This document shows, one piece after another, positions 19,301 to 61,609 of a stretch of DNA of 64,000 nt. How positions within the stretch are numbered: position 1 is the first letter of the stretch; every line of letters begins with the position of its first letter. The notes beneath the pieces were generated by a model. It was not told where the DNA came from, ran no database searches, and saw only the letters and a list, made by a program, of their open reading frames with translations. The stretch spans positions 1 through 64,000 of the forward strand of contig CDROCS010002607.1 of the NCBI GenBank assembly GCA_977020255.1. Reading direction: 5' to 3'. The stretch comes from Obrimoposthia wandeli. Its lineage: Eukaryota. Both the position numbers and the translations under genes were made by a program.

Positions 19301-22300
19301 GAAGCTCAATCTTTCTCCCATTAAGTTCAGGAATTCCTCCGAAAGATTCATGATCTCACCGGGATCGGAAGCTCCAGATCTAGTCATAGATATTATCCAC
19401 TCCTACAAAAGGTCGAGCCCATATCCCTCTTGCTGTTCTAGTTGCCCATGGCCAGGTTAGAGAACCTAGCTGGTTAGAGAGCCTAGCTGGTTAGAGAGCC
19501 TAGCTGGTTAGAGAGCCTAGCTGGTTAGAGAGCCTTGCTGGTTAGAGAGCCTAGCTGATTAGAGAGCCTAGCTGATTAGAGAGCCTAGCTGGTTAGAGAG
19601 CCTAGCTGGTTAGAGAGCCTTGCTGGTTAGAGAGCCTAGCTGGTTAGAGAGCCTAGCTGGTTAGAGAGCCTAGCTGATTAGAGAGCCTAGCTAGTTAGTA
19701 GGTGGATGTGTCCGGTCTTATCCACAACCCCCTCCCCCTACTGTCCTTTAAAACCGTGCATGTGAGTAGGTGGATGTGTCCGGTCTAATTCATTTCCTTG
19801 TTCCTGCATGTGTGTGGAGTGAAATTTCACTCCACACACATGCACGGTTTTAAAGGACAAGGGGGGAGGTCCCCCCTAACAATTTTTCGCGCCTATTGGC
19901 GCGACAAGCTCGGGACTGATATATGTCACAGACTAGCTTGGCGATGTACGAATGTCTCGCTCTCATATATGTCACAGACTAGCTTGGGTGATGGGCGAAT
20001 GTCTCGCTCTCGTGTATATCACTAACTACCTCGGGTGATGGGTGAAAGTCGACGGGTGTTGGATGGAAACACCCAACCGACCACCACCCACCCCTTCGGG
20101 GCGGGCTCTATTTTCACGAAAATAACAACGATGGGTGATGGGTGAAAGTCGACGGGTGAAAGTCGGTGGGCGTTAGGCTGGTGGTGGTTCACCACCAACA
20201 CCACACCACACCACACCACACCACACCACACCACACCACACCACACCACACCACACCACACCACACCACACCACACCACCACACCACACCACACCNNNNN
20301 NNNNNNNNNNNNNNNNNNNNNNNNNNNNNNNNNNNNNNNNNNNNNNNNNNNNNNNNNNNNNNNNNNNNNNNNNNNNNNNNNNNNNNNNNNNNNNNNNNNN
20401 NNNNNNNNNNNNNNNNNNNNNNNNNNNNNNNNNNNNNNNNNNNNNNNNNNNNNNNNNNNNNNNNNNNNNNNNNNNNNNNNNNNNNNNNNNNNNNNNNNNN
20501 NNNNNNNNNNNNNNNNNNNNNNNNNNNNNNNNNNNNNNNNNNNNNNNNNNNNNNNNNNNNNNNNNNNNNNNNNNNNNNNNNNNNNNNNNNNNNNNNNNNN
20601 NNNNNNNNNNNNNNNNNNNNNNNNNNNNNNNNNNNNNNNNNNNNNNNNNNNNNNNNNNNNNNNNNNNNNNNNNNNNNNNNNNNNNNNNNNNNNNNNNNNN
20701 NNNNNNNNNNNNNNNNNNNNNNNNNNNNNNNNNNNNNNNCCGCCCGGAACACTTTTTAACTTGTAAAAGTCTCCATCGAATTTGCTCGTGGCCAAATTAC
20801 GTTTTCTAGAATTCTTCTCAAACACAAAGTTTAGACTAAAGCTTATAGCACGATGCACTCCAAACTTTAAGTAGAATTGAAGAAGCCGCCAATAGTAATC
20901 CCGCCAAACTAGGTAGGTGAATACTCTCATACTGGTCGTACAATGCTAGAATTGACTCAAAATCAGCATACACCCTGAATTCCACGGGTATGCATTTTGC
21001 TCAATCTCTGAATTTTAAATCCTTATAGCGTATTTTCATCAGGATTCAGTGTACATAATGTCAGATGTTTACTGTAAGAGAGCTAAAATGCAAACATCTA
21101 TGACACCACTTACACCTTATCCTAACCGGTAAGGCTCCATTATCTAAATTTAGAAGACGATATAAATTGGGAATTGCAGCATAATGGAATTTATTATTCT
21201 GTTCCCTCACAACTACATCAACGCGAGCTTCATCCCATTCGTGTCGCCGGCGGGAGAACAGGGGACACGCGAGAGCAGCACCCCGGAGTACCTGGCCTGT
21301 CAGGGTCCCATCGAGGACAGCATCGACGATTTCTGGCACATGATCTGGGAGCAGCAAGTCACCTGCATCGTCATGCTCACCAGGTCTGCCTCTTTCTGTC
21401 GTCTTTCTATCCCCAACAAATCACCAAATGGATCAGGGCGGGAAAGTTAATTGAAATGTGTAAATGCTTCAACCAAAAATGGAACTTGGTACATCCGAAG
21501 TATCCTAAAATTGATGAAAAATTTATAAAACGACAATGGCAGCCGTTTGTTTATGGTTGTTTATTACAAATTCAAACAAAACGAAAAGCTGAACCATAGC
21601 AGCGGGAACCATGGCAACATTTGGATATCGGGAGAGATGATTATGTGTTCAATACAATGAACGTACGGCATCGTTTTTTCTCCGTAATCTAGAGTCTCAC
21701 ACAATGCGCAGCAATATTCACCTTCTCGGCATTTTTTGGGATAAACATTTTGGCGCGGATATGGAAACCAACAACATTATTAATATCAGACAAAATGAGA
21801 AATTAAATATACAATGTGAACAATTACTCAGCTTATACTTTCCTCTGAATCACTTTTCTTTCCATCTCCTTCCAATGTCGCAGATCGAGAAGTCGGCAAT
21901 TTGTTAGTCTCGTCAGTCTTAAGGTGCCTGCTAGAATCGCTGTGTCCATCAGCCCGATGCCGTTTGTACAGCGAAATTGTCTGCTAAGGCAGCAGTGGAC
22001 GATCCCCATGACCAAGGACGCTCTAATCCCATAAACACCAATTGTATTTCTTCCCATATTCGACCAGATATTTACCTTGACTTGAAATTGTAATTTTGAA
22101 AGAAGTGTGCTATCTTTATCTCAATTGCAGCATGATGTGAACAAACGATGTTCTTCGCGAGTTTTCTTGGTTTTGAAATAATTGTGAAAGTCAGTTTTTA
22201 TTTTAGAAAGCCGCTATTGAGTGTTCCTCAAACAAGACATCTTTAAATTGCCGATCAACATTGAATATCCCCAAAATGGCGACGACTGCCAGGCTTACTC

Positions 22301-25300
22301 ACACGGAACTTAGGGTCACTCAGTGCATTACCCAAAACTTTCATGTTTAGTCAGTGTCACTCATTTATTTTCGTCACAATGAATCTTTCCGATTCTCTTG
22401 GTGTGGTTCTTGGGCATTGGGTTTTGTAGGTGCTACTCTACTTTAAGCAACTTCACCATTGTCACAGGGTTGAATGTGAATATATATGCGATTATCTGTT
22501 GAGCCGCTCGATAAACAACGACATACGTGCAGTTAAACACGCTGTTCTTCATTGCTTCCTGAAAACTGCATTCGTCGCTCTGTTGTCAGATGTCTCATAA
22601 AACATGGGGGCTTCTTTAGATGCAGTCGCGCTCATTTTCATATATTACCCAGACATCGATTTGTATGCTAAAGTCTACACAGTGAAATTATCTACACAAC
22701 TCGTGCAAAGATCCAATTGTCTTGCATTCACATGAGAGCTCGAGTTTATTGCAATGTTTCTTCTCAGAGAAAGATGCGATTTTTATTCTGGTTGTCTAAC
22801 AACGATTAATAGACTTTACAAATCATATAATATTACTTTTTAAAAAACATTGTTTTTGTTGAAAAATTAGAAATGATTGAACCATAAAGCCTAGTTAAAT
22901 TGAAACGTATTGAATTTACAAAGGAAAAGTGTTTGTACTGTGGGCTATATATTCATAAAATATCAGTAAAAGCCTTGCAAAGCTCAAGTCAGACCCCCAC
23001 GCATTTGTGTGTATATGTAGGTTAATTAAGTTAAATGGATCTTTTTAGTCAAGTTACCGTACTAGCAGCTGTATTAAGAGGTAGAAGTATAAGAATTAAT
23101 CAGAATATACCATTTTACATAAAAAGATTTTAAAAATAAAAACTTTTAAATAAAAAAAGGTAAGGGGTATTTTCTTTCTTTGACCTAAGCACTTCGTAAA
23201 TTCCAACTATTGGATAAACAATTCATAACCGGATATCCTTCAGTAGAGCTCGAAAAACTTGGCGTAAACAATGGTCGACGTTGCAACATGCTAAATTACC
23301 ACATCTAGACGAACTTACCCTAATTATACAATGCAGCGGCGATAGATATGGTCGACAATTATGCAAACTTTATAAATAAAACACAGGAATGCTATCCAGA
23401 CGATATTGTTGCTACATCCGTACAAGTTGTCATATGCCGATGTTGTAGTGACAACGGATAGATTGTTGTGATCTACTACTCGACTTGAACTCCTTCATTC
23501 CCATTTATGTAGCCAAGGGAATTTGCTTCCAAGTTTTTGAAACTGTAGATACTCATCTTCCTTTCCTTCGAAGATCCACTACCTACTTCTTTATCTCGAC
23601 TTCCAATTCAGTTCAGTAACTATTCTTTTTTCTCGGGTCCTTTAATGGTTGTCCTTCATTCAACATTTCCTTATGTTTCCCCATCCTTGAAATCTGCTCT
23701 CCCCACCATTTTATATTTATGTTGTCTTAACTTCAGCAAGTCTTACCATTTCCAGCTTCCTGCTCTGTATAACATTGTCTGGTCGTTTATTATCCATATG
23801 GCTGTGAAACGGGACTGATAATTCATATGTTATTTTGAAATAACTTCAATGATTAAATTAATAAAAATCCTTTTTAGAAAAGATGATATTTTGTTATTGC
23901 GCGTTATATATCGTATCAGCAAGTCACAAACACAAAATTTTAGGGTATTACAAATGTTGTAAGGAAAAAATATAACATTTCTCTCAAGTGTGGAAATAAT
24001 TTTATTATTTTACAATCTTATTGAACTATTTTCCATTGATGCATTTAACAAATCCAAACTGTGGCAAGAGTTCATTTATCTTCATCGTATTACTTGTAGA
24101 AATACCAACTTACAATTTTTTCTACGTTGAAAAAAGCTGTTCCATCTAAATCCAGTTAGATATTTTCGTTATTGATTAATAATACAGAAAAACTCCATAA
24201 TTTGATCTCTGCTTGAACCTACTTCTGAAATGTTTTAATATGGTAACTACGCTCTCTAATTTATTCCTTTTTATAAATAAAAATTAAAGAGAATAATGCA
24301 AGATCTAAAATTTAAAGACATGTAAAATTATAAAGTTATCATTAATAAATTGTTTTGTTGTTTTGGATATTTTAGGCGGACAATTTTTTTTAAAATTTAT
24401 TAATATATTGTGTATGGTATATAATTCATTCAAAAAGAAATACATGTTACCATAGTAAAAGAATAAATTAAGAAAATCGAGAAACAAATTGAAAAAATGA
24501 GAATTTTTTTCTACATCATCAGTAAATACCCCTTGGAAATATAGAAATAAGTCCCTAAAGTCAAAGAGAGGTCAAAGTTCAAAACAGACAAAATAAGGGC
24601 TGTCATTATCGAGGGATATATTGACTACTTCAATGGGAAAGGTATAAAAGAAGGGCTGTCATTATCGAGGGATATGTTGACTACTGCAATGGGAAAGGTA
24701 CAAAAGAAGGGCTGTCATTATCGAGATATGTTGACTACTTCAATGGGAAAGGTACAAAAGAAGGGCTGTCAATATCGAGGGATATGTTGACTACTTCAAT
24801 AGGAAAGGTACAAAAGAAGGGCTGTCATTATCGAGAGATATGTTGACTTCTTCAATGGGAAAGGTACAAAAGAAGGGCTGTCATTATCGAGAGGTATGTT
24901 GACTTCTTCAATGGGAAAGGTACAAAAGAAGGGCTGTCTTTATCGAGGGATATGTTGACTTCTTCAATGGGAAAAGTACAAATGAAGGGCTGTCATTATC
25001 GAGGGATATGTTGACTACTTCAATAGGAAAGGTACAAAAGAAGGGCTGTCATTATCGAGGGATATGTTGACTACTTCAATGGGAAAGGTGAAAAAAAAGG
25101 GCTGACATTATCGAGGGATATGTTGACTTCTTCAATGGGAAAGGTACAAAAGAAGGGCTGTCATTATCGAGGGATATGTTAGTAGGTGGATGTGTCCGGT
25201 CTAATCCACACCCCCTCCCCCATTGTTCTTTAAAACCGTGCATGTGTGTGGAGTGAAATTTCGTGTAGGTGTGTGGAGTGAAATTTCACTCCACACACAT

Positions 25301-28300
25301 GCACGGTTTTAAAGGACAAGGGGGGAGTACCCCCCCCTAAAAAAAGAAGGGTTCGGGACCGACATTGGTCACAGACTAGTCCTGCGATGTACGGATATCT
25401 CGTTCTCATATAGGTCACAGACTAGCTTGGCGATGTACGGATGTATCGCTCTCACACCACACCACACCACATCACGCCACACCACGCNNNNNNNNNNNNN
25501 NNNNNNNNNNNNNNNNNNNNNNNNNNNNNNNNNNNNNNNNNNNNNNNNNNNNNNNNNNNNNNNNNNNNNNNNNNNNNNNNNNNNNNNNNNNNNNNNNNNN
25601 NNNNNNNNNNNNNNNNNNNNNNNNNNNNNNNNNNNNNNNNNNCCCTCCACCCGCCCTTTCGGGCGGGCTCTATTCTCACGAAAATAACTACAAAACATGC
25701 GCTACAGTATCACTTTACCTCTCACAACTACAAATGTAAACGACCCGAGTCATACCCTAACATACACCACCCGCCCCTTCGGGGCGGGCTTCATTTTTGA
25801 TCTATAGGCACAAAAAAAACATTACAAAAATTATTTGTCGGCTCCTCGGATATAAAATTCGTTCTTATTGTAAGTAAAATTTGGAACTGCCTTTTCTATT
25901 TTCTGTTTAAGATATTGAAAATCAGGTTTTTGAATACCTGATAGATAGTAGCTGAACTTTCTTCTTTCAATTGTCACAGGATTTACTAAAGCAATCAGTT
26001 GAGCCTTCTTCAAGAATCTGACTTTGTATTTGAAATATTGTTTCACTTCTTCATACATATCCTTAACCGATTCTTCAAACATTTCTTCGTCATCGCTTAA
26101 TACCCGTTGGCTATCGTCCATCGTTGATAATTGTCTTTGATATGAATGCATTTACTGTGATTTGTCTTCCAATGGCGCATTCTTTTATACTAATTTCTAA
26201 CAAAATATATCATCCAATTATAATAGGTTTGCAAGATAATTACAAGAAACGTGCAATAAAAAAGCAGGTTCAGACATATATAAAGAAGATTTTACAGAAT
26301 ACAATTTCAGTCTAATGAAACTCGTAAATTATAAAGGTAGAACAGAAGATGATGTTTCGTACTTACCATTCAATGAATGGAAGCCGAGACAATATGTAGA
26401 AAAGTTTGACAATTTCACAGTTGTTATTTTTCCTACAGGTTAGTTTTTTATTTTATTTTTATATTGAATTCTTTAGGAAATTGTCGTGTTATGGGATGCA
26501 AAATACCAATGCTTGGGTTCAATTTACCATTTGGAATTCAAATCACTGCAATACAATCAATCACGATTTCGGCTAATCTCGGGAAACAGATAAATCTTTT
26601 TAAAACTGCAGATAAAATAAAAGAAGAATGCATGTTTGAACCAGAAATTTTTCCTGCTCTCAGTTATTTGAAGTTTAAACCGCTATGTGTAAATATATTT
26701 TCCAGTGGTAAAGTTATGATATTGGGATTGAAAAATTGTGATTATCCAGACATAGTTGATTTGATTTTAGAAAATATATCTTATTACATCTTGTTATCTT
26801 TTTTCTATAAACAAACCCCGTTTAAACTTATTGTTTCAAATGAATAATACTATAAATAGAGACAATGAAGTGGATCGGCTTGCCGATGAAATATTTTCTG
26901 GAAAAATTAGGGGTAAAGAAATTTTATCAGAATTAAAAAATAATGATATAACAAGAGATAACATTCAAATATTGGTTAGATCACACGTTATTCGAGAATT
27001 TAGAAATCGTACACAAATAAATAAAATTATAGCCAAATATTCATTAATTAATTTTTGTATTTCATCTACAATAGCTCTAACATTGTACATTTCAATAAGG
27101 AAACTTCTATGATAATATAAACAATATTAAAAATGAAAGAGTATATGCAATGGAGCTGAATAATAATGCTGTATTTCAAATAGTTGGCCCAAGTGGAAGT
27201 GGAAAGACACATTTCGTCTGTAAATTGTTGCAAAATGAATCTCTTTTCAAATCTAGTTTCAAAAATATTTATTGGCATCATGGTGGAGGAGGGAAAGGGT
27301 TAACCAAAACAGAAGTTTGCAAGTTGAAGGGTATAAGATTTATTGAAGGATTTGATGCAAATTGGTGTGAAAGATTGAAAAAAGAAGATGTAATAATAAT
27401 TGATGATTTGTATGAGGAGGATAACAAGGAATCGGACTTAATAATTTATTTACAAAGATTGCAAGACATCGTGAAGTTACAGTTATATTTATCACTCAAA
27501 ATCTGTTTCACCAAGGAGGTCACCATAGAACAAGAAATCTTAATGTACATTACTTAGTTTTATTTAAAAATCCTAGAGATCATACAGTTGTTGATTTTGT
27601 GGCCAGACAGGCATTTCCTCTAAATAAGAACTTTCTAGTTGATTCATTCCACGATGCTGCTAAACAAGCACATGGGTATATATTTATTGACTTTACACAA
27701 GCTTGCCCAGATGATTTACGTGTTTTAACAGACATATTTAATTCTAAGGGAGTAACTGTTTATAAACAAATAGAAAACAATTATAAAAAATAAATTCGCA
27801 ATGCCTTTTACAAAGTTGATACTAAAACGTAAAGTAAAATCTAAGAAATCATAAAAAAGAATCATTAAGAAAAAAGAAGTGAAAAAATTAATCAAATCTG
27901 TAGTTAAAAATAAAAAAAACTTAAATGGCTTCGAATATAACAATATTTAAATTGAACCTCTTTTATTAAAATGAAGAAAATACAAAGAAGCATACCCTAT
28001 TTTAAAGCTTTAGTCAAAGCCTCTTCTAATAAGAGAATGATTATTCTTAAAGCATTTCCATCTTTTGTTGTAGATGATTTATTGGAAGTTTTGTATAATA
28101 TAGTTTTGGGTCGAGTAAAAGTTGAAAATCGGAAAAATATATTAAAGAAATATAGAAAAACTCTTCTAGATATTGCTAATGTAAAAAGTAAAAAAAGGAA
28201 ACGAAATATTATTCTTAAACAGAATGGTGGTTTCATAGGGGCTGTTATTCCAGTTGTTGCTTCAATTATCAGTAGTATTATATACACGTTCATAAACAAT

Positions 28301-31300
28301 TATTTCTAAAATCAGCTAAAGATATGGGTGCTAGCCCTTCTTTACCTGAACTTAAATTTTCTTTCTATTCAAATTGTTGTAATGGAGAAGATATGGTTCA
28401 ATCCAAAAGATCCAATTGGCTACACAGGAGTTTCAAAATTAGCAAAAAGAACAAAACAAAATTACAAGAAAACGCAGAAATGGCTGAGTGACCAGTTAGC
28501 CTACAGTCTGAACAAGCCGATGAGAAGAAGGTTTCCAACTAGAGCTTACAAAACCAGCGGTCCTAATAATTTATGGCAAATGGATTTGATGGATATGATC
28601 CCATATTCTTCCATTAATAAGGGATATCGATATATTTTAACATGTATTGATGTATTTAGCAGGTTTGCTCGTGCAATTCCAGTTAAAGCAAAGTCTTCAA
28701 TAGCTATGCTTGAAGCCATTAAAGAAATATTAAAAGAGGACATTCCACAAAATGTGCAAACTGATTTAGGAAACGAATTTTATAATAAGCTAGTTCAATC
28801 ATTATTTAAATAAAATAATATAAATCATTACTCTGTGTTTTCACAATACAAAGCAGCAGTAGTAGAAAGATTTAATCGTACTCTAAGAGATCGAATAAAA
28901 AAGTATTTCACAAAAGAAGGAAATAAAAAATGGATCCAAGTTTTACCTAAAATAATACATGCATATAATCACTCTGAACATAGAGAACAATTAGGGAATG
29001 AGACCTGTTGATGTTACTAATAAAAACTCTATGGACATTTGGATGAACAGGAATAAAAAAGATAAAATTAAAAAAGCTAAATATAAGAAAAACGAATATG
29101 TTCGAATTTCGAAAATTAGCTCTACTCCATTTATTAAAAACTTTGATCAGAATTGGAGCGATGAAATATTTTGTAAAAGTAAAATTGATCAAAAGAGTAA
29201 TCCAATAATGAATACTATTAAAGATGCTGACATTAATATCGTTCACGGTAAATTTTACGAGCAAGAACTACAAGTAATATCAAATAAACCTATCGTTTTC
29301 CGTATTCAAAAAATATTAAAATCTAAGGGTACAGGTAAACATAAACAATACTTTGTTAAATGGCATGGTTATTCAGACCCAACTTGGATATCAGCATCTA
29401 ATATAATATGAATTCTATGTATATGGTTTTACCAAGTAACGGATGTCCGAAGACTCAACCAGATAATGACGTTAGTAGCTTTATTATCGATTGGGAAAAT
29501 TCTATAAATCTCCAAGGAGAATGGGAAGCGGCTTTAACAGAATTTTCCTTTTATTATTCTCCAATTACTATCAAAAAAAACTCACATATTTCGTTTACAA
29601 AAGAAGTTGATCATGAAAAAACAACTGAAGTTGTGATCGGGTTTGATAGTAAAGGACAATTCTATTACAATTGTATAGATAAAGAAGTGAAAGTAATATT
29701 TGAAAATAACAAAGTCAGATTTAAAAATCGATTAAAATTTCTTCAAGTTATTAAAATTAATTTTGAATCTAAAAAAGAAGCTCTTCAATTCAGTTTTGAT
29801 AGTGAACAAACAGTAGCTCGTAATAAACGGGATATTATCTCATCTAATTCGGTTAGAAATGTTCCTGGTAGAGTAGCAAAAGTGTTGTTACTTGAAACGA
29901 GACCAAAGACTGTAGTGGAACTGAAAACGTTTTCAAAAGATTATAAAATAGATAGTGAAGTGAATTTCTATAAATTAATACAGAAGGAATGTAGTGAATA
30001 TTTGGATATATGTGAAACATTAAATGGTAAATTAACGTTTACAGTAAAGAGCAATATAAAACGAGTTTCATTTGATGATAAACTCGCTAAAAACCTTGGT
30101 TTAAACAGAAATACCTTTGAAACCCATACAATAAAAACCATAAAAGCTAAAAATAAGGCAAAACTTTTAAATGCTGTTAATCATTTATATATTTATACTA
30201 ATTTAATAGAACCAACGCTTGTAGGAGGACAGCGAGTTCCACTTTTGAGAACAATATGGATATCTAAAAATGAAACTAGAGATGGGGACGCTGTCGGTAT
30301 GTGTATAGATCAACCAATGTATCTTCCAGTTTCTCTCTTTTCTATAAACAATATTGAAGTAAATATTAGAGATGATTCCGGACAACTAAAAGATTTCACG
30401 TACGGGGCCAAGACAAGTTTAACAATACATTTAAGAAAACAAAATGGCGAATCCAGCAATAATTGAAGCTTATAGTCAAAGCCAACAAGGTGGAGAATTA
30501 CCATATTTTGTTGGTAAACAATACGGATCTGGCTGGCTTAGAACATTAGGTAGATTTGCCTTTCCTATTTTAAAGAGACTCGGGCGATTTATATCAAAAT
30601 TAGGAAAGGATTACCTTTCATCTAATGACAATAAACTAATACCAACTTTTAAGAAGCATGCGCTTGATGAACTTGATAATGTTTTACCTGAAGTTGCTAA
30701 TTTGATTAGAAAACGTAAATCAAATAAAAGCCAAGGAGGTAGTGGATTTAAAAGTAAAATGAAGCTAAAAATTAATATAAACAAACGTAAGAAAGTTGAA
30801 GGAACAATGATTGCAAAATGAGTTGCGCCAAAACTGAATTATGTATTTTTGATAAACCGCTTCCACAAGTAGTTGTAGATAATGCTTCCTTTGAAGAAAT
30901 ATTCCTTGTTAACTCAGTTTCAGGAACCACTTTAACCGATTTAGAATTTAATATTAATTTTTCCAATAGCGAGTATTTAGATTTGAATGATACTTTGCTT
31001 TATGTTCAAATAAAAGTATTAAATCGGGATGGTACTAATTTAGATGAAAATGCCGATGTAACACCTGTAAATTATCTATTTAATTCTTTATTTAATGATG
31101 CCATTATTACTCTTAATAATGTCAAAATTGAAGGTGGAAATTCTTCCTATGCTCATAAAGCTTTGATTGAAAGTCTTTTGAATTATAGTACTGATACTCA
31201 AAATACTAATTTGGCAACCATTGGTTATGATAAAACTGATGCAACTCACAAAGAATGGATTGCAGGTTCTAAAGCTTACGAAATGTGTGGGTCTTTGAAA

Positions 31301-34300
31301 TTGAATTTCTTTGAACAACCGAAATATTTAATTCCCGGTGTTAATGTACATCTTCGTTTGAAACGTAATAAATGGAATTTTTCTTTGATAAGCACGGACA
31401 TTCTAAAACCTAGACTTGATATTTTGGATGCAAAATTGTATGTTCGAAGAGTTAAAACCGAGCAATCAGTTTTAATGGCACATAATATAGGAATGGAAAA
31501 AAACAATGCTTGTTATCCTATTAGAGAAACTAAACTTATATCTTATTCTTTAGGTACGGGTACACAAGCTTTTAATAAGGATCAAATTTTTGGTGATGTA
31601 AGATTACCGAAATTCATTTTAATTTCTTTTCAAAAAACTGCAAATTTCTAGGAAATTATACGACAGATGCAACTCAATTTGACAATCTTAATTTTGGTTC
31701 AGTGACACTTTCAAGAAATACTGATTATCGTGAAACATATGAAACAGATTTCGAAGGTAACGCTTATGCTTTGGCTTATACCCAATCTATTATTCGAAAT
31801 TTGGGTCAACTAGATAAAAATATAAACAATGGTATTTCTTTCACTGATTTTAAAAACAGCTGCCCGTTCTTCACATTTGTTTTGGCACCAGACTTTGATA
31901 TAAACCAATGCCAACTACCAAAGGATGGAAATTTACGACTAGAAATTAAGTTCAATGCAGCTTTGACAAATCCTACTACGGTGCTTATTTACGGAGTATT
32001 TGATTCGGAAATACAAATCAATAAAAACAGAACTGTCATATTATAGAATGGAGTAAGACATATTTTAAATTTATATTTATTAATTTTTATTTAGTTCAAA
32101 ACAAGTAAAAGAATCAGCAGAGAAGGTCCTGGGTGATAAATTCAATGGAGTTTATCCTATTGATATGATTCCATTTTTTCAATCTGGAGGTTACATTATC
32201 AATACTCATACTTCGAATTTACCAGGAGAACATTGGATAGCTATTTATGTTAGAGAGTGGACAATACATGTATTTGATCCACTTGCAATGTATTATCCAC
32301 ACAAACTTGTTTCAACTATTCAAAAAGGACGAAGAAGAGTATTTTACAACAAGATACAATATCAGGATCCTGCGACGAGAAACTGTGGACATTTATGTAT
32401 TCTATGGTTATCGTTGCAAAACGATTAGTGTGTTATAAAAATAAAAAATTTAAATGTTTTATTTTGAATTATTTTTTAAATCTCTAAAAATTTAAGGGTA
32501 AAATAATAAAATACATAAGACAATTTTTTTAATACATTTATTAATCACAACATCACAATGAGATATGTCAGCAAAGATAAGGCATAATAAATAAGGTCCA
32601 TCCTAAAAAAGTATTGAAATAACAAATAAGTTAGAGTCTAGGTGCCATAGGGATCTAAAATTTTAAAAATCTAAACTAAAAAAATCAAAAAATGAAAACC
32701 GTTTAAATTCTGAAGTGTCCATAAGCCAGGCTAGCGTTCTTTTCTACCCAAAAGCGCTTGTCGTCATTACTACTCAACGCGATTTTGGTTGATTTATGGG
32801 AATACAGTTGATGGGCTCTTGAAATAAATCTAGTTTGCTCAACGCTTTCAATACACCCAGTATCATAAACTTTCCGGTAGGCCTCATGTGTAAGATTGTT
32901 TCTTCCCACACCCTTTGCTCTCATTGAACATGTATTATTAGATGCATGTAAACTGTAGCATTTAGGGCGTAGGAAAATACAATCATCATACGAAACCTGT
33001 CCCTCGCTTTCATCCTTAAATATCCCGATAATGTCCTTTAAACTCATAGAGTGTAGAGGATGGTTAGCGGGATATTTATGGGTATCTAGTAAGTTGTCCC
33101 TAAACATTGCTGGTAATAATTGATTATTTAAACTAACATTCCTACATTCTAAAAAGAAAGAGTCAGTGTCCCCAGCTGCGATTTTAATCTCACAATTAAA
33201 TTCTTGTCGGTATTTCTCCAATTCTATGTATTGAAGCTCATACATTCTGAGTTTAGAAATGTCTAAAACCGTTTGACCTATATATCTCGGTCGATCGAGA
33301 CAAATACTCTGTTTTCCTAATAACACTGCTACCAAGTCATCTGCAATTGTAAAACTACGCTTGAAGTTGTACTTGCTAGTATATGTTATTAGTTTACGCT
33401 CATCATTGCAAAACCGTAGACAAATACGTTTCCGCAAGTCCTCTACAGTTTTTCCAAAGAGACTATTACTTTTTAACTTGTAAAAATCTCGATCGAATTT
33501 GCTAGTGGCCAAATTACGTTTTCTTGAATTCTTCTCAATATAGTCTTTAAACACAAAGTTTTGACTGAAGCTTATAGCACGATGAATTCGAGTAACTTTC
33601 GCTCCCAACTTTATGTAGAATTGATGAAGCCGCCAATGCACAACATAATTCAACTTGTCTTTATGGGTTAACAATAATTTCTTAACCTTTGAATTAGGTG
33701 GGTATTGATGAACAGGCGCTACTGGAAGATCATCTAATTTATCATGCACATTGGGAGGGATTTTTATGTCCACCTCAACCAAATAGCCTACGTCGGATGA
33801 AACTGTATCAACAGTAGCCAAATCTGTCATTAACTTATTCAACTTATCCACATCATAAACCAATTTAAAGTTGGCATGAGGTAGAGGTTGAGTAAGCGCC
33901 CACCCATACAAATTATTAATATCGATGTACAGAATCTCCGTGGATTAATTTTTGACAACATGATGTTTGTTGACAAAAGTCATTCCACCGCGTATACCAT
34001 AATCATACATTTGATACATCGCGGGATCTTGCAGTAACTCGATATTAATTTTAAGAGTTTTTATTGCTGTTGCCCATGAAAGACCAGGTAAACTAAAGAA
34101 ATGCATGGGATCTAGCCCATCTTCTGCTAAAGACTTTACACGAAAGGACTCAAAAACATCAGCTAAAAGATAAATGTCTAACTTCATATAATAAAGCATA
34201 TATTCGAGAAGATTTGACAATTATTCACCCAAAATGTACGGGCCTCATTATAGTCTTGAAGACTTACACCCTCAAATTCAGTTATGGGTGGGATTTCAGT

Positions 34301-37300
34301 TGTATTTTCTAAATCTGTGAAAGTTTTCGCAAATTTATACGGAAAAATCCCCTTATCGTTAACCGAAGCTGGGAACACTGACTGTGTAATTGGCCATGCA
34401 TTTAAAGATGCCGTTAAATTTTTTAAAAACCCGCTCAAAAACTGCAGAGAATCTATGAATCTTAAACTGCAGAATTTAGTATATGCAGTAAAAGATAAAT
34501 ATTTCTCTGAAATTTGAGGTATACATGAAATTTCCCAAGAGCTTAATGTACCCAACGCGTATTTAAGTATATGATGCAAATCATATCCTTTGAGGTTATG
34601 AAACACGATGGGAATGCGTGGTTTTTTAGGGAGACGACGGCCAAGGTTACAAAGGTTGCACGCCGCTCCCAAGTATCGCCCCGTAACATGATCGTGATCT
34701 CTGACTAACTTAGACTGGGTTCCACACAAATAACATAATCTACAAGAATTAAAATTAACCCAGTCTATGCCTGTCATGATCATTGCTTGATGAGCATTGA
34801 GATCATACCACGGTTTGACAATTGTTGTTCCTAATTCCTCTAATTTTAACATAAAATCTAAAATACAATTTGGACAATAAAATTTATGATACTAGGTAAT
34901 ATTGGGGCCTAAGAATAGTAGTCCTGCCGAAGCCGGTAGGTGAATACTCTCATACTGGTCGTGCAATGCTAAAATTGACTCAAAATCTGCATACACTCTG
35001 AATTCCACGGGTATGCATTTTGCCCAATCCCTGAATTTTAAATCCTTATCCTTAGGCATGCTATATAGCGTATTGTCATCAGGATTCAGTGAACATAATG
35101 TCAGATGTTTGTTGTAAGAGAGCTCGGATCGGAACCCATGCAAACATCTATGACACCACTTACACCTTATCCTAACCGGTAAGGCTCCATTATCTAAATT
35201 TAGAAGACGATCTAAACTGGGAATTGCAGCATAATGGAATTTATTATTATGTTCGAGCAAAATTAAGTTGACCTGAGTCCCCTCATTTTTGCTTCTATAA
35301 ATTACATTTACAAAAGGATTTTTAAAAATTTCTTTTGATCTGTTACATTTACTGGGATATCAGTATTATATTTGTTTTATTTATTTATCTATTTTATTTA
35401 TTTATTTATCAAACATTTATTAATGTGAATGCAATCAATTTCTCAAAGGCCCCATAGGGGCCTCTTCTACTTTACGTAGGTCCGGGTCTCAATATGCTGC
35501 TGGTCCTCGGTAGCAGTAACAGTAGCTGCTTGGGGTCTCGGTTTCGTTATTGGAACTTTGAGTAGGTCCGCGTACTTTTTCAGTACTATTACGTCATCGT
35601 CGGGTACAGTTTTGGGCCCCTCGGCAGTCTCGATTGTAGCGGGGCCACCTTTTCGGCCATTACCCGTAACCGACCGCAGGTCGGTTTTCGGGTACGATTT
35701 CTCCTCCTGTCCATGTCGAGAACAAAGCTAACATCGTGAATTCTAACTAGAGTCCATCCACTACTTAACTCGCTATAATTAGCAATTTTTTCATCCAGGT
35801 TTCTTCCAATTTCAGTTACAAAATTATCATAAAAAACAGTTGCTTTATGTGAAATTACCCAAGTTTTAGTTTCCTCATTGACATTTTTAAACTGCACTGT
35901 TACGCAAAATTGAACCTTAGCCTGTCCTAATTTAGTCACTTCTGATTTTAAAAGATTTTCAATATTTGAATCTACACCTACGTTTAATAAAATTTCATTT
36001 CCTAATGGCACCTTAACTATAACATATTTATTATTTAGGTGATACTCTATAGTAGCACCGTTTTCTCTACGTTTTTTTGGTGGGACCTTATTAAGAAATT
36101 GGCCTCGCCTCTTTCTTCCGTTTGTCGCTGACAAACCTCCCCCTAATTGAACGGGAAGACAACTATTTATATTAATAGTTGACACAATCGCAGCTGAGGT
36201 TGAAGGTGCTGCCATTGGACATGCTGCCGATGTTGAGGCAATCGCAGCTGGTGTAGACGATGCTGCTGGAATAGATGCTGCCGCAGATGTAGAGGCTGCA
36301 TTTGAAGCTGACCTTGCCGATGAAGAAGCGGCTGTTGTAGAGGTTAGTGCTGCTGAAATAAATATAATAAAAAATAAATATATTTTTAAAAATTACCTCT
36401 AAGGCGTGCTAACATCGATGGGGGAGGAATAGCTGTCCTATCAGATGACGGCTGTATCATGGTACTTCCTGAATAAAAAATAAAAAATATATAATAAAAA
36501 TAAAATATATAATTTAAAAATAATAATAAAAAATACCTAATGAAGGCAATCCAAGTTGAGCTGGAATGAAGTCCTCTTCATTGACGAAATCCATCCAGCT
36601 GTCGTCCGACATGTCGACGAAATCGGATTCCTCGATGGTCTCCAACCACGAGTTATCGCTCCACTGCTCTATCTCGAAATCTGACTGGTATATGTCATTC
36701 ATCCACTCATTGTTAGACATTTGAGTGGATGGGTCAGAATCAGGAGCCGGGAGACCAATTGCAGGACCGTAAAAGGGTTGATCAACTGCAACTGGAATTG
36801 GAGGTGGAGCGACCTGTGAATCGCGCACCAATTGGACGATATCCCTCTTCTTGTTGATGGCCGTGAAACACGATAGATGAGCTCGATGTTCACTGAAGAA
36901 GTCTCGAAACTCCTTCTCCTCCATTGTTCTGCAGAAGGGGCAGACGAAGAACAGAACACCTTGAGACTTTGTCCGGTAGTATGCAGACATTGTCTCCATG
37001 CAGGTCTCTCCTCCATGTGGAGTCGAAGCACCACAATACGCAGGGAATAGGTTACAAGTAATCTGAAATAATAAATATTAATAAGGAAATAATAAAAATA
37101 AATTCTTACCATAGGCATTATTTCAAATTGTCGGGGATTTAAATGAAAAAAGTGTTTGCTTATATACTAAAATTTATGCACACATGCTCTTTTCCTATTG
37201 GATTAAAAAATTGAGAAGGTTTGTTTATCTGTTAAATGGTCGAAAAAAATATTTTTTTATTCCTCCAATCAAAATATTTAATTGTAATTGAATGAAAATT

Positions 37301-40300
37301 ATGAATTAGAAGAATTGTTTATCTACATGTCAAGTAATAATAAGAAAGACTTAGACATTTTTTATATGCGCAATGGTCACCATGATTACGATATGGACAG
37401 AAAATATTTCTTGGAATTTTTAATAGATGATCACGTGAAATATTTAAAGTATTCAACCTCAATTTAGGAAAATATTTTTTTAAAGTCATATATTTTTTGC
37501 CATCCATGTCATCTAAAACATAAAAAATTCCATTTTCAATTTCAAAATTAAATTTAATAGTATCGAAAATACATATTTCACAAAAAGCCTTATGTCCTTC
37601 TTTCCATTTTAATAAATGGAAATATTTAGTTAGATATAAATTAGTAAATTTTTTCTTATAATCTAAACTTTTAAATGGGATATCTATATGAAATATGAAA
37701 TGCAAAGGATGAAAAACGTCGCATACATCCATAATACATAATTCTTTTATAATATAATCCCCATTTTTGTTAATGAAAGCCTCAAAATCTATGATATATT
37801 CCTGCATAATTATCTAAATTTGTAGCAAATCCCGTTGTTTATAACGAAGTACTTTCATGTTAAGATTGGAATATTTTGTCAATTCTCCTATGTAACATAA
37901 TCAATAAAGACAAAATAATAATCAAAAATTTATTTTTTTGTAGAAGGACCCTCTTCCGGTTTAATCTGGAGGATTCTCTTTCTTGCTGCTCGCCGAACAT
38001 CCTCCATCTCTTCTCTTCTTTTTTCATCCACCTTCCTTTTTTCCAATTCGATCTTCTTATTCCACTCCACGATTCGACGGCGTTCTGCTAGCCTCCTATC
38101 CTGTATCTCCACCCGATGATTCCACTCTGTCGCGACAGCAGTATACAAATTTTGATTGAGGACCCTCTTTCTTAAGTCCCCTTTCTTCTCATTTATTCTT
38201 ATGTTTGCTTCAATCTTCGTCACCAGACTCTTCATTTTAATGAATTCCATTTTTTAATTATGAAAAGGTTAATAAATTTGAACCTATATATATAAATTAA
38301 AGATATTTTTTAATCCAATTAAATGATATATTTTTATTTATCAAATGAGAGTTTAATAAATCTATAACTTATCATTGTAAATAAACTTAAAGATAGTATT
38401 TCTAAATTTTAAAAAAAAATATTAAGAAGAAAACATATGAAACTAATTTTTATAAATTATATATTTAAACAATTTTACGAAGTCATCATTGGGATCATCC
38501 GGGTCGTAATCCCTCCGACTAAGTATTATAGGAGAAAGCGGTACTGGTTCCTTCTTCTTTGGCCGGCCCGGTTTCTTTTTCGGTTTCACCGGTTGCTGTA
38601 CAGCAATTGTCCTTCCCTCAGGTTTTGGCAATAGTTGCCGCAACTTTTTGGGAGGAGGTGCAGCCGATGTTGATGGTTCCGACGTAGAAGTCCACTTCCG
38701 TGGAGCTTTCTTCTGTTTCTCCTCCTTCTCACGCTGAAGCTGGCGTGAGACGGCATCCTGTTGCCCATGCGAATCTGGAAGCATTGCCGGTGAATCCAGT
38801 TCCGCCCGGAATTCATCCAATCCAGCGTCATCCCAGGCCCTCTTCAAGTTTTGGCTGGTTGTTGGACGAGTAGAAGCAGTCTCCTGCAGGCGTCGTTGAC
38901 TTGAGGGCGGACTTATCTCGATCGGCGAGACTGGGATCCTCTCATATAAGATTGGTCCGTCGTCCACTGGAGATTGGAGAATCTCCTGCTGACCAATCAC
39001 CGTCTCAGAATAATGACCAATTGAGGTTTTACATTTTCTCGAGCGTCTTGTCTTCTTCACCTCTGCCCTCTTCGTCCGTTTCCGCGAGAAAGGAGTAACT
39101 TCTCCCCAAGTCTCCTCAAATATCTGGACGGATTCCTGCAAAATATTAATAAAATTTAAACATATAAATAATTTACCTCAATGATGGGCAGGTTAGCCTG
39201 TTTCCACAACTTGGCCTTCTTCCGCGTGAGGGTTTTGACCCGATGGCGTTGCGGTTTCTTAACTGCCGCTTGCTTCCTATCCACCGGTTGAATAGACGTT
39301 GCCTCTTCGTGAATATTCTCCATCTATATGAATTATTAAATTTAATATCTAAATAATTTACCTTAAAATTATCTGGAGACGCTAGGTATCGGAGCTGACT
39401 CCTTGGCAGCTCCTGGCTGCATTGACTCGCCAAGTACTGCGGTTCAATTAGCCTCTCCACCATGGTCACTGACGGTGCCAAATCCAGTTGAAGTTTCTGA
39501 AAATGAAATTAAAAAAACATTTAAAATAAATGATGTCTAACCTCATTCGTCGGTTTTATTCTCCTAACAGGAGATTTTGGCCTTTTGAATGGTTCAGGCA
39601 TTGTATTATCTGCTTTCGGAGTAGCAGAGGGAGTGCGACCATCCCAATCGTCGGTGAACAGGTGCCACTCGTCCTCGTCCAATTCTGCTACCATCGACTC
39701 GTTGGCTTCAGGGGCTCCGATACTTGGCTGTATCCAGTCGTCGATGAATGGAGTCAAGTCCTCCTCCCAATCCGAAGGTACATCATCGGTGAACAGCTCC
39801 TCGTCTGAGTCTGGTGTGAGGACTTTCTCCGGTTGAGACAGCGGGATCAATTTCCAGGTGCATGTGATTGCCGCCTCAAAATTGTCGAAGAGATTGGATC
39901 TCCCTGCTGCTACTGCTGAAGTTGCCGGACGATTGGGTTTTGTGTTTTGTCTGGGAGTACAGTCTTCCCAATTCTCAATCGAATCCTGACTAGTCAGATC
40001 GATATATTGGGATCTCTGTACCCAACCTCTCACGTCCATTGGTTCTTCTCTTGGAGTTGAGCTGGCCAATGAGGCTTCCAACAGGTTCGTTCTTGCTGCT
40101 GCTTCTCCTTCGCTCACCACCGATGACTCTTGACTATCTAAGTCAATGTATTGCGACGGTGGTGGCGTTCGCTGCTGCACTGGAGAGAGATCCCCATAGA
40201 GTTGAACCTCCGTCTCTTCGTCTAGGTCAACGTTGTTGTAGAATGGCATAGTTGATTTATGAAAAATAATGAACGGAGGTGTCTTTATATACACAAACAT

Positions 40301-43300
40301 CTTACTAACCCTCTTTTATTGTCCAATGAGAGCCTCTTATTCAAATAATTTTTGTAATGTTTTTTTTGTGCCTGTAGATCAAAAATGAAGCCTGCCCCTA
40401 AGGGGCGGGTGGTGTATGTTAGTGTATGACACGGGTCGTTTACATTTGTAGTTGTGAGAGGTAAAGTGATACTGTAGCGCATGTTTTGTAGTTATTTTCG
40501 TGAGAATAGAGCCCGCCCGAAGGGGCGGGTGGAGGGTGGAGTGTTTCGGTGGTGTGGTGTGGCGTGGTGTGGCGTGGTGTGGTATGGCGTGGTGTGGCGT
40601 GGTGTGGTGTGGTGTGGTGTGGTGTGGTGTGGTGTGGTGTGGTGTGGCGTGGTGTGGTGTGAGAGCGAGACATCCGTACATCGCCAAGCTAGTCTGTGAC
40701 CTATATGAAAGCGAGATATCCGTACATCGCCAAGCTAGTCTGTGACCTATATGAGAACGAGATATCCGTACATCGCAGGACTAGTCTGTGACCAATGTCG
40801 GTCCCGTACCCCCCTTGTCCTTTAAAACCGTGCATGTGTGTAGAGTGAAATTTCACTCCACACACCTACACGAAATTTCACTCCACACACATGCACGGTT
40901 TTAAAGGACAAGGGGGAAGGGGGTGTGGATTAGACCGGACACATCCACCTACTTATGTTGACTACTTCAATGGGTAAGGTACAAAAGAAGGGCTGTCATT
41001 ATCGAGGGATATGTTGACTACTTCAATGGGAAAGGTACAAAAGAAGGGCTGACATTATCGAGGTATATGTTGACTTCTTCAATAGGAAAAGTACAAAAGA
41101 AGGGCTGTCATTATCGAGGGATATGTTGACTTCTTCAATTGGAAATCTACAAAAGAAGGGCTGTCATTATCGAGGGATATGTTGACTTCTTCAATGGATA
41201 AGGTACAAAAGAAGGGCTGTCATTATCGAGAGATATGTTGACTACTTCAATGGGAAACGCCCCTGACTTTTAAAATTATTCTTTTATTAGCTTGAAGTCG
41301 TCATTGCCTTAACACATTTATAGGAAGACTATATTAGCAATTTTATATGTAAATTTGAAAATATTGACATCATCAATTTTCTCTAAAAGAGCACCACCGA
41401 ATTTTTTTGTGTGCAGCATAGATAATCTCTGTGATAAAGATAAAGTTTCATTGGCTGTCTCCTGTCCCCTTTGCCAAGAGTACGTTTATGCTCCCAGGTG
41501 TGTGGAAGACGAGAAGTTCAAGTGCCTGCAATACTGGCCGGATGAAATCAATGGCTATGCCAAGTTCGGGTCTAAGAAGGAGCTCAAAGTCACTATGACG
41601 TCAGAAAGATCTCTCGAGAGCCACATTGAACGCGGTCTTCGTGTACTCCACAAGGTAGTTGAATCAGCTGTTGATTTTTACATATTAAATGGCAAAATTA
41701 GAATGTATAAGACGCCATAGTCGCAGCACCGCAACATCGTCAGACATCTTTGAAGTAGTCGCTAAATTCCGGATTATTCTGATTTTCGTAGTCACATTTT
41801 AGGAGAAGAAGTGTCACTTGATAAATTGTCTTTTGGGAAAGCCATAGGTATGGGGAACAAAACCACGTTGCCCCAAACATTCATAGGATTATTTAATCTC
41901 AAGTTAAAATTCTTATGAAAAATGCCAAAGTTTTGAAAAGGTATAAAAGATCAAGACATATTTTAACAATTTCAGAATTTCGTAAGCAGACTGATAACCT
42001 GATGATCTTCTGATTTGAGATGTACTCTTGTTCTCTTACGCGAATGAAAACGCATCAAACATGACATATTCTTCTTTTATATAGTGATGTTTTGTCTGTA
42101 ACGTTTCATAATATTTTTAAGATCAACAAATTAACAAAAATTTTATTATTATTGTTGTAAAATTAAGAAGATAGTACAAGAGTTTGAATTATGCAAAAAT
42201 ATATAAATATTAAAACAACAATACATATACAAACAAGGATTATTTCATCACACCTTCCCCCTTTTCTTCTTTACTGTCTGAATCGAATTGGTTTCTGCCT
42301 CTGTCTTCTAGGATGTTTCTTTTGCGATTGTTCAATCTCGTCTTCTGTTATCAGATCCGGAAGTTCCACAGATTGGGATATTATAGAAGTGGGTGTTTCT
42401 GATTCTGGTGTATTTTCCCCTTCATTTCTTTTAATATGTACCATATTTCTCTCCACTACTTTTTATCTCCAATTCTTTCTAATTGATAAGAGTGTTTCCA
42501 TAACATTTTAAAACTTTATACTGCCCTTCATATCTGGGTTGATCAATTCCTTTAATACCAGGCAGTATTCTCATCATTACCATTTCTCCTTTCTTTAATT
42601 CGTTTGCACATTTCATTTTCTTTGGTACAAATAACTTTGTCTCTTCTCAAGTCATTTTATGAACTTCACTTAATCTCTTCCTAAGTTCGTTTATATACTC
42701 ATTAGCGTTGTTTATTTTCCTTAGTTGCTCATTTTTTGTTTGGAATATAGATTTCATTTTTGCATCCAAGTATTATTTCAAATGGAGATAAACCCGTAAC
42801 TATGTTAGCTGTCATTCTCAAACCCAATTCGACTGTTGGTATAGCTTCTTCCCAATCACATCTTCTAGATTGTGACGTAGCAAATATAATGTCCTTAGCT
42901 GTACCAAATAGCATTTCGATTATTCGATCACCTTGAGGATAGTAGGGTGCGCTTCGTGATTTTCTAATTTCAAACATGGGACAAAATTCATACATTTATT
43001 CATTTTCAAATGATTTCCCTCGATCCGAGTGTATTTTATCAGGGATACCGAAACAACTCATCCATCTTTCGAAGAGATATTTACATATACAAGAAATATA
43101 CAAGCTGACAGAACAAGAAAAAATAGAACATAGAGACTATTGGGTGTATGTATGCATGTATGTCTGAATACTTACAAGAAATACAAGGTATATACACAAG
43201 GATAGAGAAAATAGAGACTATTGGGTGTGTGTATGCATGTATTACTGAATACTTACAAGAAATATACAAAACTTTAATTATTATTAATCATTACATCTCT

Positions 43301-58891: not shown

Positions 58892-60334
58892 CCGTCGTTC
58901 ATTGCTCTGATTGCAGCGTTAGTAATATATATTTTTGCACATATATTTTTTTGTTTGTGCTTCTCATAGTTACAAAGTTTTTTTTGGCAAGAAGCCGAGT
59001 GATAGCAGTGATGCATGTGATAAAAATAGGCGGTGGTTTGACTGCTCACGTAGATCATGGTACGGCACGAGATGGTGTGGTCTTGAGGGTCAAAGTCTTC
59101 GAGTACACCAAAGAAAGCTCCGTCTATATGGATTTTCTATGTGGAATATTTCTAAAACCGTCTATTTAAGTTTTCAGTGTCCAGGTGCTAGCATTTGTTC
59201 AGGAACTACAATTATCTTGTCATTTCTAACATAGTATATTTAACATCCCTTGCATATATTTGGGTAGCATGTTGAACGTCTTTTGTGCTAATGTTGGGGT
59301 TTTTATTTGAAACTAGATCCTTGTATGGAGGCCCCCAACGTGAGTTCTATAGCAATAGGGCTTACAGATGTATGTGGCCTATTTAGGTTTTATTCTATTT
59401 AATTTAGTCTCAAGTCTGAAGGTTTTTTGAGCTAATGTGGTGCGAGATGTGTACAGAGTTGTGTGTACAAGCTACTGAAGGGGTTCCCTTATTGTAGTGC
59501 GATGTGTGGAGGGTTTCTTATTGTCCTAATCCTATGTAGGTTGATCGATCGACTCTACTTGATGTGTAGGAAATATATTTATTTACGCTTGACTAAAAAT
59601 TGCGAAACTGACAATAATTTGTCCTTAACTAAAAGATCTTTCAACTACAATAATTTGTCCGGCTGCACTTGCCTCTACAAGGTTAAACAAGGATGACCCT
59701 GGCCTAGAGTATTGATTTTAAGTCTCATAGTAATTTAAAGATTCGAATTATACGTTCCGTAGTTATTATTTTCCTATTTAACTTCAATTGGTCAATATCA
59801 AATTCAGGCAATCTATTTTTTCAATGAGTCTACTTCAAATAGATATAATGTGTTTAATGTTTCTTTTCACTGAATTTTTTAAAATTGATATAATATGTTT
59901 ACTTTTCAATGAGTCAAAAGTAGGTGGATGTGTCCGGTCTAATCCACACCCTCCCCTTGTCCTTTAAAACCGTGTAGGTGTGTGGAGTGAAATTTCGTGC
60001 AGGTGTGTTGAGTGAAATTTCGTGTATGTGTGTCTCCATTCCACCCAAAGGGGGGAAGGAAGGGGTACTCCCCCACCATATTTGTTAAACTTTTACCATG
60101 AATCTCAAAAGTGGTTAGAGAAGACCACGAGAATCCATATTAACCCCGACGGCTTTTCGCAGACGAGATTTCAAATATTACTACTATTTTTAAGAAACAT
60201 TTTAGATTAATAAATTACTACATGTTAAATATCTATGTCAGTTTTAGAATTTAGAGGAGAAAAATCAGTCAGATCTATATAATTTAGAGGAGCAAAAACA
60301 AAATACGAGACAAAATTATTTTTCAAAATATTTA

Positions 60335-60739
60335 TTAAACATAAAACAACATATTGGCTTCACTCAAAGTCCAGAGAGGCTGCATTTTCCCGTCATCAGC
60401 AAAATATCCATTCAGACGTATTGAGATATTCCATAGTTCTTCATCTAGAATTGGAGCAATCAAATATCCTAGATCATCTTTAAAATCCAGACTGGGATCA
60501 GTTTCAAGCTCGAAACAATTTCCTTCATATACATAATCAGGAATGTAAAATCCCAAAATATTTTTCAGTTGATCAAAATCAGTTGTTGTTAAAATTTCGA
60601 TGAGATATTTTTTCTCCACTTTTGATATTTTTACAGAATTCATAATTCGTATAATTTGATGCCTCTTTAATATATTACATAGTTTTCCTTTTGAAATTCT
60701 TTCTGGATAATAAACATTTGCTACACATCTCTTATCCAT
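60335..60739 (-). CDS. Polinton hypothetical protein paralog B (about 134 aa from MDKRC)
   Basis: Colinear similarity to 60873-61349. Confidence 0.65.
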   Translation of the reverse strand: MDKRCVANVYYPERISKGKLCNILKRHQIIRIMNSVKISKVEKKYLIEILTTTDFDQLKNILGFYIPDYVYEGNCFELETDPSLDFKDDLGYLIAPILDEELWNISIRLNGYFADDGKMQPLWTLSEANMLFYV

Positions 60740-60872
60740 TCTAAAATAAGGAAACTGATTAAAAACAATGTTTATAAAAAATACACATAAGATACAAATA
60801 AGATACAAATAAAACTGATTATTAAATGAAAGAAACATAGTAAAACCGATTACAATTTATTATACACAAAAG

Positions 60873-61349: not shown

Positions 61350-61571
61350 TTACTGTGATTTGTCCTCCAATGGCGCATTCTTTTATACTAATTTCTAACG
61401 AAGACTTTCATTCAAAAAGAATTTCATTGGTTAATATAACTAAAGCATTGAATTTGATTAGACTAAATCTATATTAAAAATCAAAATTGATTGGAAGAAA
61501 TATATCATCCAATTATAACAGGTTTGCAAGATAATTACAAGAAACGTGCAATAAAAAAGCAGGTTCAGACA

Positions 61572-61606: not shown

Positions 61607-61609
61607 CTA

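Follow-up and report, generated by a model that had tools for sequence, protein, structure and literature searches.

Are the short AT-rich interruptions in the genes of a Polinton introns that the element carries from copy to copy, or are they marks left on a single copy after it inserted? This question is raised by a 64,000-nt stretch of Obrimoposthia wandeli contig CDROCS010002607.1 (GCA_977020255.1), called the window below and used for all coordinates, in which a decayed Polinton/Maverick copy contains nine such segments. We conclude that an animal-associated Polinton lineage very probably carries genuine short major-class (GT-AG) spliceosomal introns, which would be part of the replicating element and not post-insertion damage. 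A first-pass annotation of the window had proposed spliceosomal introns in a Polinton. Homologue alignment, positional conservation and codon-position bias sustain that proposal for eight of the nine segments, whose predicted status as introns is well supported, and strongly so in the TBP-like (TATA-binding protein-like) and protease genes; the ninth segment is a possible intron. The window element is a member of the Polinton/Maverick group, a variant with predicted introns in core genes.

The first-pass annotation had placed and measured all nine segments correctly, and each has GT..AG ends and is 82–96% AT. All nine have a GT donor and a YAG acceptor with a T-rich 3′ end (U2-type criteria), and five contain TTAAT 14–19 nt from the 3′ end, a weak signal in AT-rich DNA. 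Because the window copy is decayed, the restoration of frames by removing the segments had to be separated from decay; each exon was translated alone and phases were carried over by arithmetic. All 12 modelled exons are stop-free in the predicted frame. That frame is open in each of the eight downstream exons, as the sole open frame in seven and as one of two in the other, for a rough chance of agreement of (1/3)^7 × 2/3 = 3e-4, a figure softened by the fact that boundaries were picked with the frames in view. In the GC-richer arm (35720-40300), six of ten AT islands are the named segments and the remaining four lie between genes or at gene ends. Other GT..AG candidates (e.g. 37572-37513, 35352-35295, 34892-34858 and 30176-30209) were rejected, as relatives align across them without a matching gap. 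The segments are, as judged from the DNA, non-coding inserts with kept GT/AG ends and phases that match the frames. They occur at the start of the protease gene, in the 5′ extension of the polymerase gene and in two accessory genes that look regulatory; none was found in the ATPase, integrase or capsid genes. An exact insert or a conserved position was found for two of the nine (TBP-like and protease), and the evidence for the other seven is indirect.

For the protease, 1,474 relatives were found. A start-proximal intron of 35–43 nt occurs in six lineages: the window family, families F1/F5, F2/F3 and F6, and metagenome contigs L217 and L219. Its edges recur in all six (ATG-RA-GTRAG on the left, AG on the right, in matching phase) around unrelated interiors, at an exon-2 protein identity of 44–68% between intron-bearing lineages. 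The ends are intact in 10 of 11 copies checked in DNA, and in the eleventh (F3b) the acceptor has changed. The ATPase, integrase and capsid protein are encoded by long open frames in L217 and L219, with a 1,148-codon polymerase stretch in L219 as well, and thus the protease intron is not a decay product. The start-donor...acceptor pattern of two other families gave 2,470 exact genome matches, against 0 for the reversed control. In the spliced model, the glycine of the conserved motif falls at residue 20, its commonest position in the set of 151 homologues (at residues 18–22 in 88; 17 without the motif), which bears out the earlier claim that the intron restores a family-typical N-terminus; in the unspliced frame the first methionine comes only after this motif. 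The N-terminus is truncated or padded in 7 of the 12 scorable proteins among the 13 closest database hits versus 24/121 further down, and for one of these proteins (P0014, which equals L217) the DNA shows the intron as the cause of the wrong N-terminus. The segment is missing from metagenome locus L220 (31% identity), L218 ends inside it, no protease lay within the stretch fetched for family F4, and an IMG/VR scan with the protease gave 7 weak 21-residue matches that were not used. The predicted protease intron appears older than the split of the six lineages.

The position of this intron invites a refinement, compatible with genuine introns and to our minds rather unlikely, in which it acts as a regulated switch and restricts protease production to a late phase of the virus cycle, when splicing is permitted. 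If the intron is retained, a stop codon 1 nt past the donor leaves a two-codon frame behind the capsid stop. The start codon overlaps the capsid stop or sits 1–3 nt behind it in all six lineages, and the intron has been kept across the full range of divergence between them. However, an early stop is automatic for a phase-2 GTRA donor, strong consensus donors suggest constitutive splicing, and in many relatives the protease start is ordinary and uninterrupted.

The TBP-like intron is an exact insert relative to all eight uninterrupted homologues (8/8; 46–54% identity), such that a single glycine, the split codon, lies between the exon matches. Other families were located by a search with one TBP-like homologue (27,701 first-look candidates, 150 scored, 10 copies fetched). 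In family F2/F3, whose exon 2 is 57% identical, a GT..AG segment interrupts the same codon in the same phase in 5/5 copies; these introns (36, 36, 39, 43 and 43 nt, lengths in different frames) are unrelated in sequence. The intron is absent from F1, F4, F5 and F6 (5/5 copies). The predicted TBP-like intron is common to two families and absent from the others. Inheritance from host TBP was considered and rejected, as the equivalent motif is continuous and intron-free in both located host TBP genes. These two genes, found among loci L208-L216, stand in opposite orientation ~1.2 kb apart on one contig, and the same loci include another TBP-like gene, which is split, as well as two TBP-related genes that lack introns.

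It is very unlikely that the introns arrived inside host genes captured from DNA as cargo, in the manner of nematode Maverick cargo. Intron-bearing cargo genes are known (bioRxiv 2022.07.12.499685), and the TBP-like and right-end genes are accessory. The protease and polymerase, in contrast, are core viral genes, and the TBP-like intron is missing from both host TBP genes, from 8/8 TBP-like homologues and from three lineages within the genome. Capture may apply to the right-end gene, for which no homologue was found.

It is also highly improbable that the segments are AT-rich spacers, holding a poly(A) signal or promoter, between separate small open reading frames (ORFs), with the protease starting at an internal methionine. 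The element is AT-rich and yields GT..AG candidates at about the shuffled rate, and gene callers did start the relatives P0009, P0011, P0014 and P0021 internally. But an internal start in the window copy loses the conserved N-terminal protease motif, the edges and phase of the protease segment recur across six lineages with unrelated interiors, and the TBP-like segment divides one glycine codon of a conserved motif.

Comparison among copies of the window family gave a further view of all nine segments (29 copies per segment, 261 copy-by-segment observations; the copy searches favoured window-like copies). Both flanks were present in 256/261 observations, the segment was never missing, and GT..AG was kept in 250 of the 256, the comparison that the first-pass annotation had proposed as a check. 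Length changes common to at least two copies were frame-shifting in 3/3 cases in 363 intron bases versus 1/4 in 3,886 exon bases. Among private indels, most shifted the frame in introns (11/13) and exons (34/42) alike, as expected of decay after insertion. Substitutions common to copies fell at third codon positions of the modelled frames in 62/130 cases (p 5e-4), compared with 207/572 for private substitutions (shared versus private, Fisher p 0.01); this third-position excess indicates that the modelled frames were under selection. The 68-nt form of intron 36536-36469 was tried as a subfamily marker and rejected (0 diagnostic linked sites; divergence 2.25% within versus 2.03% between). That the segments are products of decay, or were inserted after integration as introners or another kind of small mobile DNA, is the most improbable reading and is largely refuted: decay of the window copy is heavy and a foreign patch lies within it, two of the introns are alike, and secondary introner insertion is the rule in dinoflagellate Polinton-like elements (PMC12166617), but the segment sits at the same place in every two-flank observation, introner-type similarity among the nine introns is about what chance gives (2/36 pairs at p<0.05; no host-wide look-alike search was made), and the protease intron occurs in two metagenome contigs with long open core frames.

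Several points weigh against the interpretation that we favour, in which these are genuine introns of the element. Its basis is comparison of DNA. The number of motifs is not above chance, with 23 donors passing the GT..AG and AT filter against shuffled means of 10–16 and 95th percentiles of 16–24. The copies are 95–99% identical, so that kept splice ends within the family are weak evidence, and the length change of the 68-nt intron may reflect recurrent slippage rather than inheritance through active lineages. Five introns, those of the polymerase linker and the right-end gene, are without an uninterrupted close homologue and rest on frame, composition and copy variation. Finally, in a protease tree of 47 rows (7 checked in DNA plus 40 of the 151 homologues, P0009-P0049 without P0014), all 7 intron-bearing rows fall in one weak group (84/82) together with 6 odd-start proteins and P0023, which has an ordinary start; a single ancient gain of the protease intron may be compatible with this weak tree.

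How far the introns resemble those of the host depends on which host introns are considered. The phosphatase gene around the element has candidate introns of 34, 39 and 51 nt (1385-1418, 2673-2711 and 6784-6834; the frame was checked by eye for the 39-nt one), and the two host TBP genes have introns of 47 and 48 nt (by eye). Across 16 junctions between profile pieces in 8 host chaperonin loci, 15 were introns of 69–854 nt and one was a frameshift; shorter in-frame introns of 43, 42, 48 or 54 nt are hidden inside the profile pieces. A host class of 42–48 nt AT-rich introns (5 examples) uses the same donor types as the element. In this small sample, the element introns match the shortest host class and its donor types, not the typical host intron. 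The earlier description of the introns as host-sized and adapted to host splicing is thus apt for the 42–48 nt class, with its like donors, and fails for all 15 chaperonin introns. The short size may instead be a property of the viral clade, since the metagenome contigs carry the same protease intron at 37–40 nt. In addition to ordinary intron-bearing genes, the chaperonin search found some twenty divergent Cpn60/TCP-1-like copies of ~550 codons that lack introns and are scattered over different contigs, and this expanded family is perhaps carried by a mobile element.

In the polymerase gene, the homologue of exon 2 in family F1 is joined with the polymerase in a single 519-codon open frame, and thus two linker introns, specific to the window family, are needed to connect exon 2 here. 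AT-rich GT..AG segments near the polymerase 5′ end were seen elsewhere, one in F1/F5 (54–57 nt), two in F2 (3/3 copies) and three in L219 (by eye, two of them also recovered in a second analysis); they are not clear in F4 or F6, and positions between families are not alignable. Adenovirus polymerase and terminal protein also begin with a three-codon exon, a likeness that our literature search did not confirm. An endonuclease VII/HNH domain lies inside the polymerase both in the window (34187-34891) and in L219 (6586-10026). The beta adintovirus/pPolB2 group is marked by a divergent PolB remote from PF03175, an OTU domain at the N-terminus and, in some members, an HNH insertion. The polymerase of L219, an intact relative, has no PF03175 or OTU match and matches PF02945 (E 2.5e-5). 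The HNH insertion has been described as limited to nematode and oomycete pPolB2 (PMC10748475), and this host may extend the known range of the HNH-bearing polymerase.

The right-end gene has no Pfam family (best Atlas score 0.79, a lead only) and, among the matches listed, none in the other Polinton families. Its product is acidic and then basic, a composition that, together with what we take to be two SUMO-interacting motif (SIM)-like motifs and one nuclear localization signal (NLS)/AT-hook-like motif, suggests a disordered nuclear regulator. Two neighbouring introns of this gene, 39361-39324 and 39176-39136, have identical first 12 bases (p 0.003 versus shuffles; 1/36 pairs), and origin by local duplication is possible. 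The ninth segment, near the 3′ end of the gene, keeps GT..AG and 36 nt in 29/29 copies, and a stop follows 11 codons on if it is read through and 6 codons on if it is skipped.

The element is inserted in a 56-bp satellite (Table 1). This satellite lies within an intron of a host gene for a receptor tyrosine phosphatase, whose product combines fibronectin-III, kringle and tyrosine-phosphatase domains; the gene and the genome size of 1.35 Gb suggest that the host is an animal. Identical 6-mers at 25175-25180 and 40954-40959 form a 6-bp target duplication, with one extra relative to the uninterrupted satellite unit. The polymerase matches PF03175 (E 1.2e-7) and the integrase PF00665 (E 4.5e-10), and both genes are broken in this copy; the P-loop matches of the packaging ATPase (including PF04665, E 0.007) and the PF00770 match of the protease are weak. 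Polintons have double and single jelly-roll capsid proteins; a Pfam search of the putative capsid genes here gave zero matches, and their assignment rests on size, order and conservation; the major capsid counterpart is one frame of 420–430 aa in L217 and L219, also without a Pfam match. A TBP-like gene is present in every Polinton family examined. The breaks in the ATPase, integrase, major capsid gene and polymerase body of the window copy are stops, frameshifts and the foreign patch, and the fragmentation of its core genes is mostly decay, not introns. The earlier claim that plain ORF calling fragments the gene content therefore holds for four genes, with P0014 as the demonstrated database case, and does not extend to those broken by decay.

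Table 1. Features of the Polinton copy and its predicted introns, in window coordinates.
Feature	Coordinates	Strand	Remarks
Polinton/Maverick copy, decayed	25181..40953	.	15.8 kb; AG...CT termini; long terminal inverted repeats
Left terminal inverted repeat	25181..25837	+	partly N
TBP-like exon 1	26315..26438	+	41 codons and 1 nt; matches the N-terminal part of uninterrupted homologues
TBP-like intron	26439..26476	+	38 nt; phase 1; within glycine codon of first IFxSG-type motif
TBP-like exon 2	26477..26847	+	PF00352, E 1.3e-11
Packaging ATPase	27099..27793	+	frameshift near 27425 in window copy
rve integrase with chromodomain	28385..29411	+	broken near 28813 and 29000
Putative minor capsid protein	29402..30466	+	from position and conservation in all families; without Pfam match
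Putative major capsid protein	30818..32046	+	frameshift near 31620; name inferred from Polinton gene order
Protease exon 1	32048..32052	+	start codon plus 2 nt; one base past capsid stop codon
Protease intron	32053..32094	+	42 nt; in codon 2, phase 2; site common to five other lineages
Adenain-like cysteine protease exon 2	32095..32428	+	PF00770 weak, E 0.036
Protein-primed DNA polymerase B, exon 4 and body	32703..36352	-	endonuclease VII/HNH insertion; broken near 33945, 34200 and 34892 and by foreign patch
Foreign patch	35375..35719	.	345 nt; absent there from 28/29 other copies
Polymerase intron	36353..36396	-	44 nt; phase 1; 40, 41, 44 nt in copies
Polymerase exon 3	36397..36468	-	72 nt
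Polymerase intron	36469..36536	-	68 nt; phase 1; 68, 74, 75, 76 nt in copies
Polymerase exon 2	36537..37062	-	CxxC-bearing and acidic part
Polymerase intron	37063..37109	-	47 nt; phase 0; after codon 3
Polymerase exon 1	37110..37118	-	three codons
Possible ninth intron	38443..38478	-	36 nt; 3′ end of right-end gene
Right-end four-exon gene	38479..40249	-	exons 40249-39542, 39496-39362, 39323-39177, 39135 onward; ~550 codons
Right-end intron	39136..39176	-	41 nt; phase 0
Right-end intron	39324..39361	-	38 nt; phase 0
Right-end intron	39497..39541	-	45 nt; phase 0; 43, 44, 45 nt in copies
Right terminal inverted repeat	40342..40953	-	

The foreign patch is GC-richer and replaces a 288-nt polymerase segment; one other copy, L028, has part of it inserted at the identical site. 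The family of the window element is high-copy (3,711 first-look candidates in the 1.35-Gb genome; 40 scored, 96–98% identity), and a second copy lies in the window itself at 59919-64000, 96% identical and with the TBP-like intron included. In the left arm of this second copy, ~1 kb (60021-61036) has no counterpart in the main copy and holds one ORF of 173 codons and the last part of another of 158 codons. An old, shrunken Polinton fragment (19697-21451, 75–86% identity) has a polymerase piece that runs straight into a duplicate, 98.8% identical, of the phosphatase exon of the host at 16939-17182, a junction that could be host-exon capture or a local rearrangement. A 164-codon gene at 37319-37813 is conserved in F1, F5, F6, L217 and L218 (37–46% identity) without a Pfam match, and the N-terminal DFE motif of its product presumably resembles those of DEDD exonucleases. 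The genome holds at least four divergent Polinton lineages, nested inside one another, with the TBP-like gene ahead of the ATPase in all and the polymerase gene in varying positions. They are very abundant, with 23,796 first-look candidates for the protease query, alongside those for the TBP-like query given above.

Compared with animal Polintons/Mavericks (adintoviruses, Eupolintoviridae), the element is alike in its inverted repeats, 6-bp duplication, protein-primed PolB, rve integrase, ATPase, protease and two putative capsid genes, and differs in having split protease and polymerase genes and, in every family examined, a TBP-like gene. Core genes of vertebrate and nematode elements are reported to be intronless, unlike those modelled here; this trait describes the group without defining it. 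Dinoflagellate eupolintoviral proviruses with introners (PMC12166617) likewise have spliceosomal-type introns inside Polinton-like elements. Those introners, however, are young and transposon-derived, ~90% consistent with post-integration gain and mostly in non-coding locations, whereas in the window family the introns have become fixed and their sequences are unrelated, and one of them is common to several lineages. Polinton-like viruses with group I introns (PMC12220804) also have an intron next to the capsid gene region, but these are self-splicing and 309–376 nt long, compared with 35–75 nt and GT-AG ends here. Adenoviruses (PMC7070027), relatives of Polintons, are nuclear DNA viruses with a protein-primed polymerase, an adenain protease and dependence on the spliceosome. 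They use long alternative splicing from few promoters, whereas the introns here are 36–75 nt and cellular in style.

The accounts consulted point the other way. Intact vertebrate Maverick copies are given as intronless, which is said to agree with Kapitonov and Jurka 2006, and the same survey counted only intronless copies as intact (PMC8097293). Maverick core genes are described as intronless and cargo genes as having introns (bioRxiv 2022.07.12.499685), a large survey chose a prokaryotic gene caller as endogenous viruses ‘do not contain introns’ (PMC10120064), endogenous mavirus-like elements are reported without introns (PMC8547959), and the portions seen of PMC8502044 and PMC10748475 do not mention spliceosomal introns in these elements. 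Nowhere in the literature searched are core genes of animal Polintons reported to have fixed spliceosomal introns; original descriptions, Repbase and supplements lay outside its scope and may hold multi-exon annotations.

If these are introns of the element, host RNA polymerase II would transcribe its genes in the nucleus, where the host spliceosome would remove the introns. Intron size may be held at the minimum of the host machinery by packaging limits on a 15–20 kb genome, and the start-proximal introns of the protease and polymerase may be kept because they aid mRNA processing or export. A bolder proposal, which we consider doubtful, is that a widespread and mis-annotated clade of TBP-carrying animal polintoviruses runs a miniature adenovirus-like splicing program. 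In it, the ancestral protease intron would be a regulated gate on capsid maturation (retained, a two-codon frame; spliced, the full protease), and the start-proximal and linker introns would tune the polymerase and the SIM-bearing early regulator.

Since Polinton surveys assume intronlessness, a clade with micro-exon protease and polymerase starts would score as degraded or receive wrong N-termini, as shown for P0014 and suggested for 7/12 scorable closest hits. The TBP-like intron, present in some families of one genome and absent from others, exemplifies how a DNA virus lineage has gained or lost an intron. Conserved introns would imply nuclear, spliceosome-dependent expression under selection. 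Exact junctions would tell true element mRNA from read-through or DNA, and so provide a handle on whether animal Polintons express virion genes.

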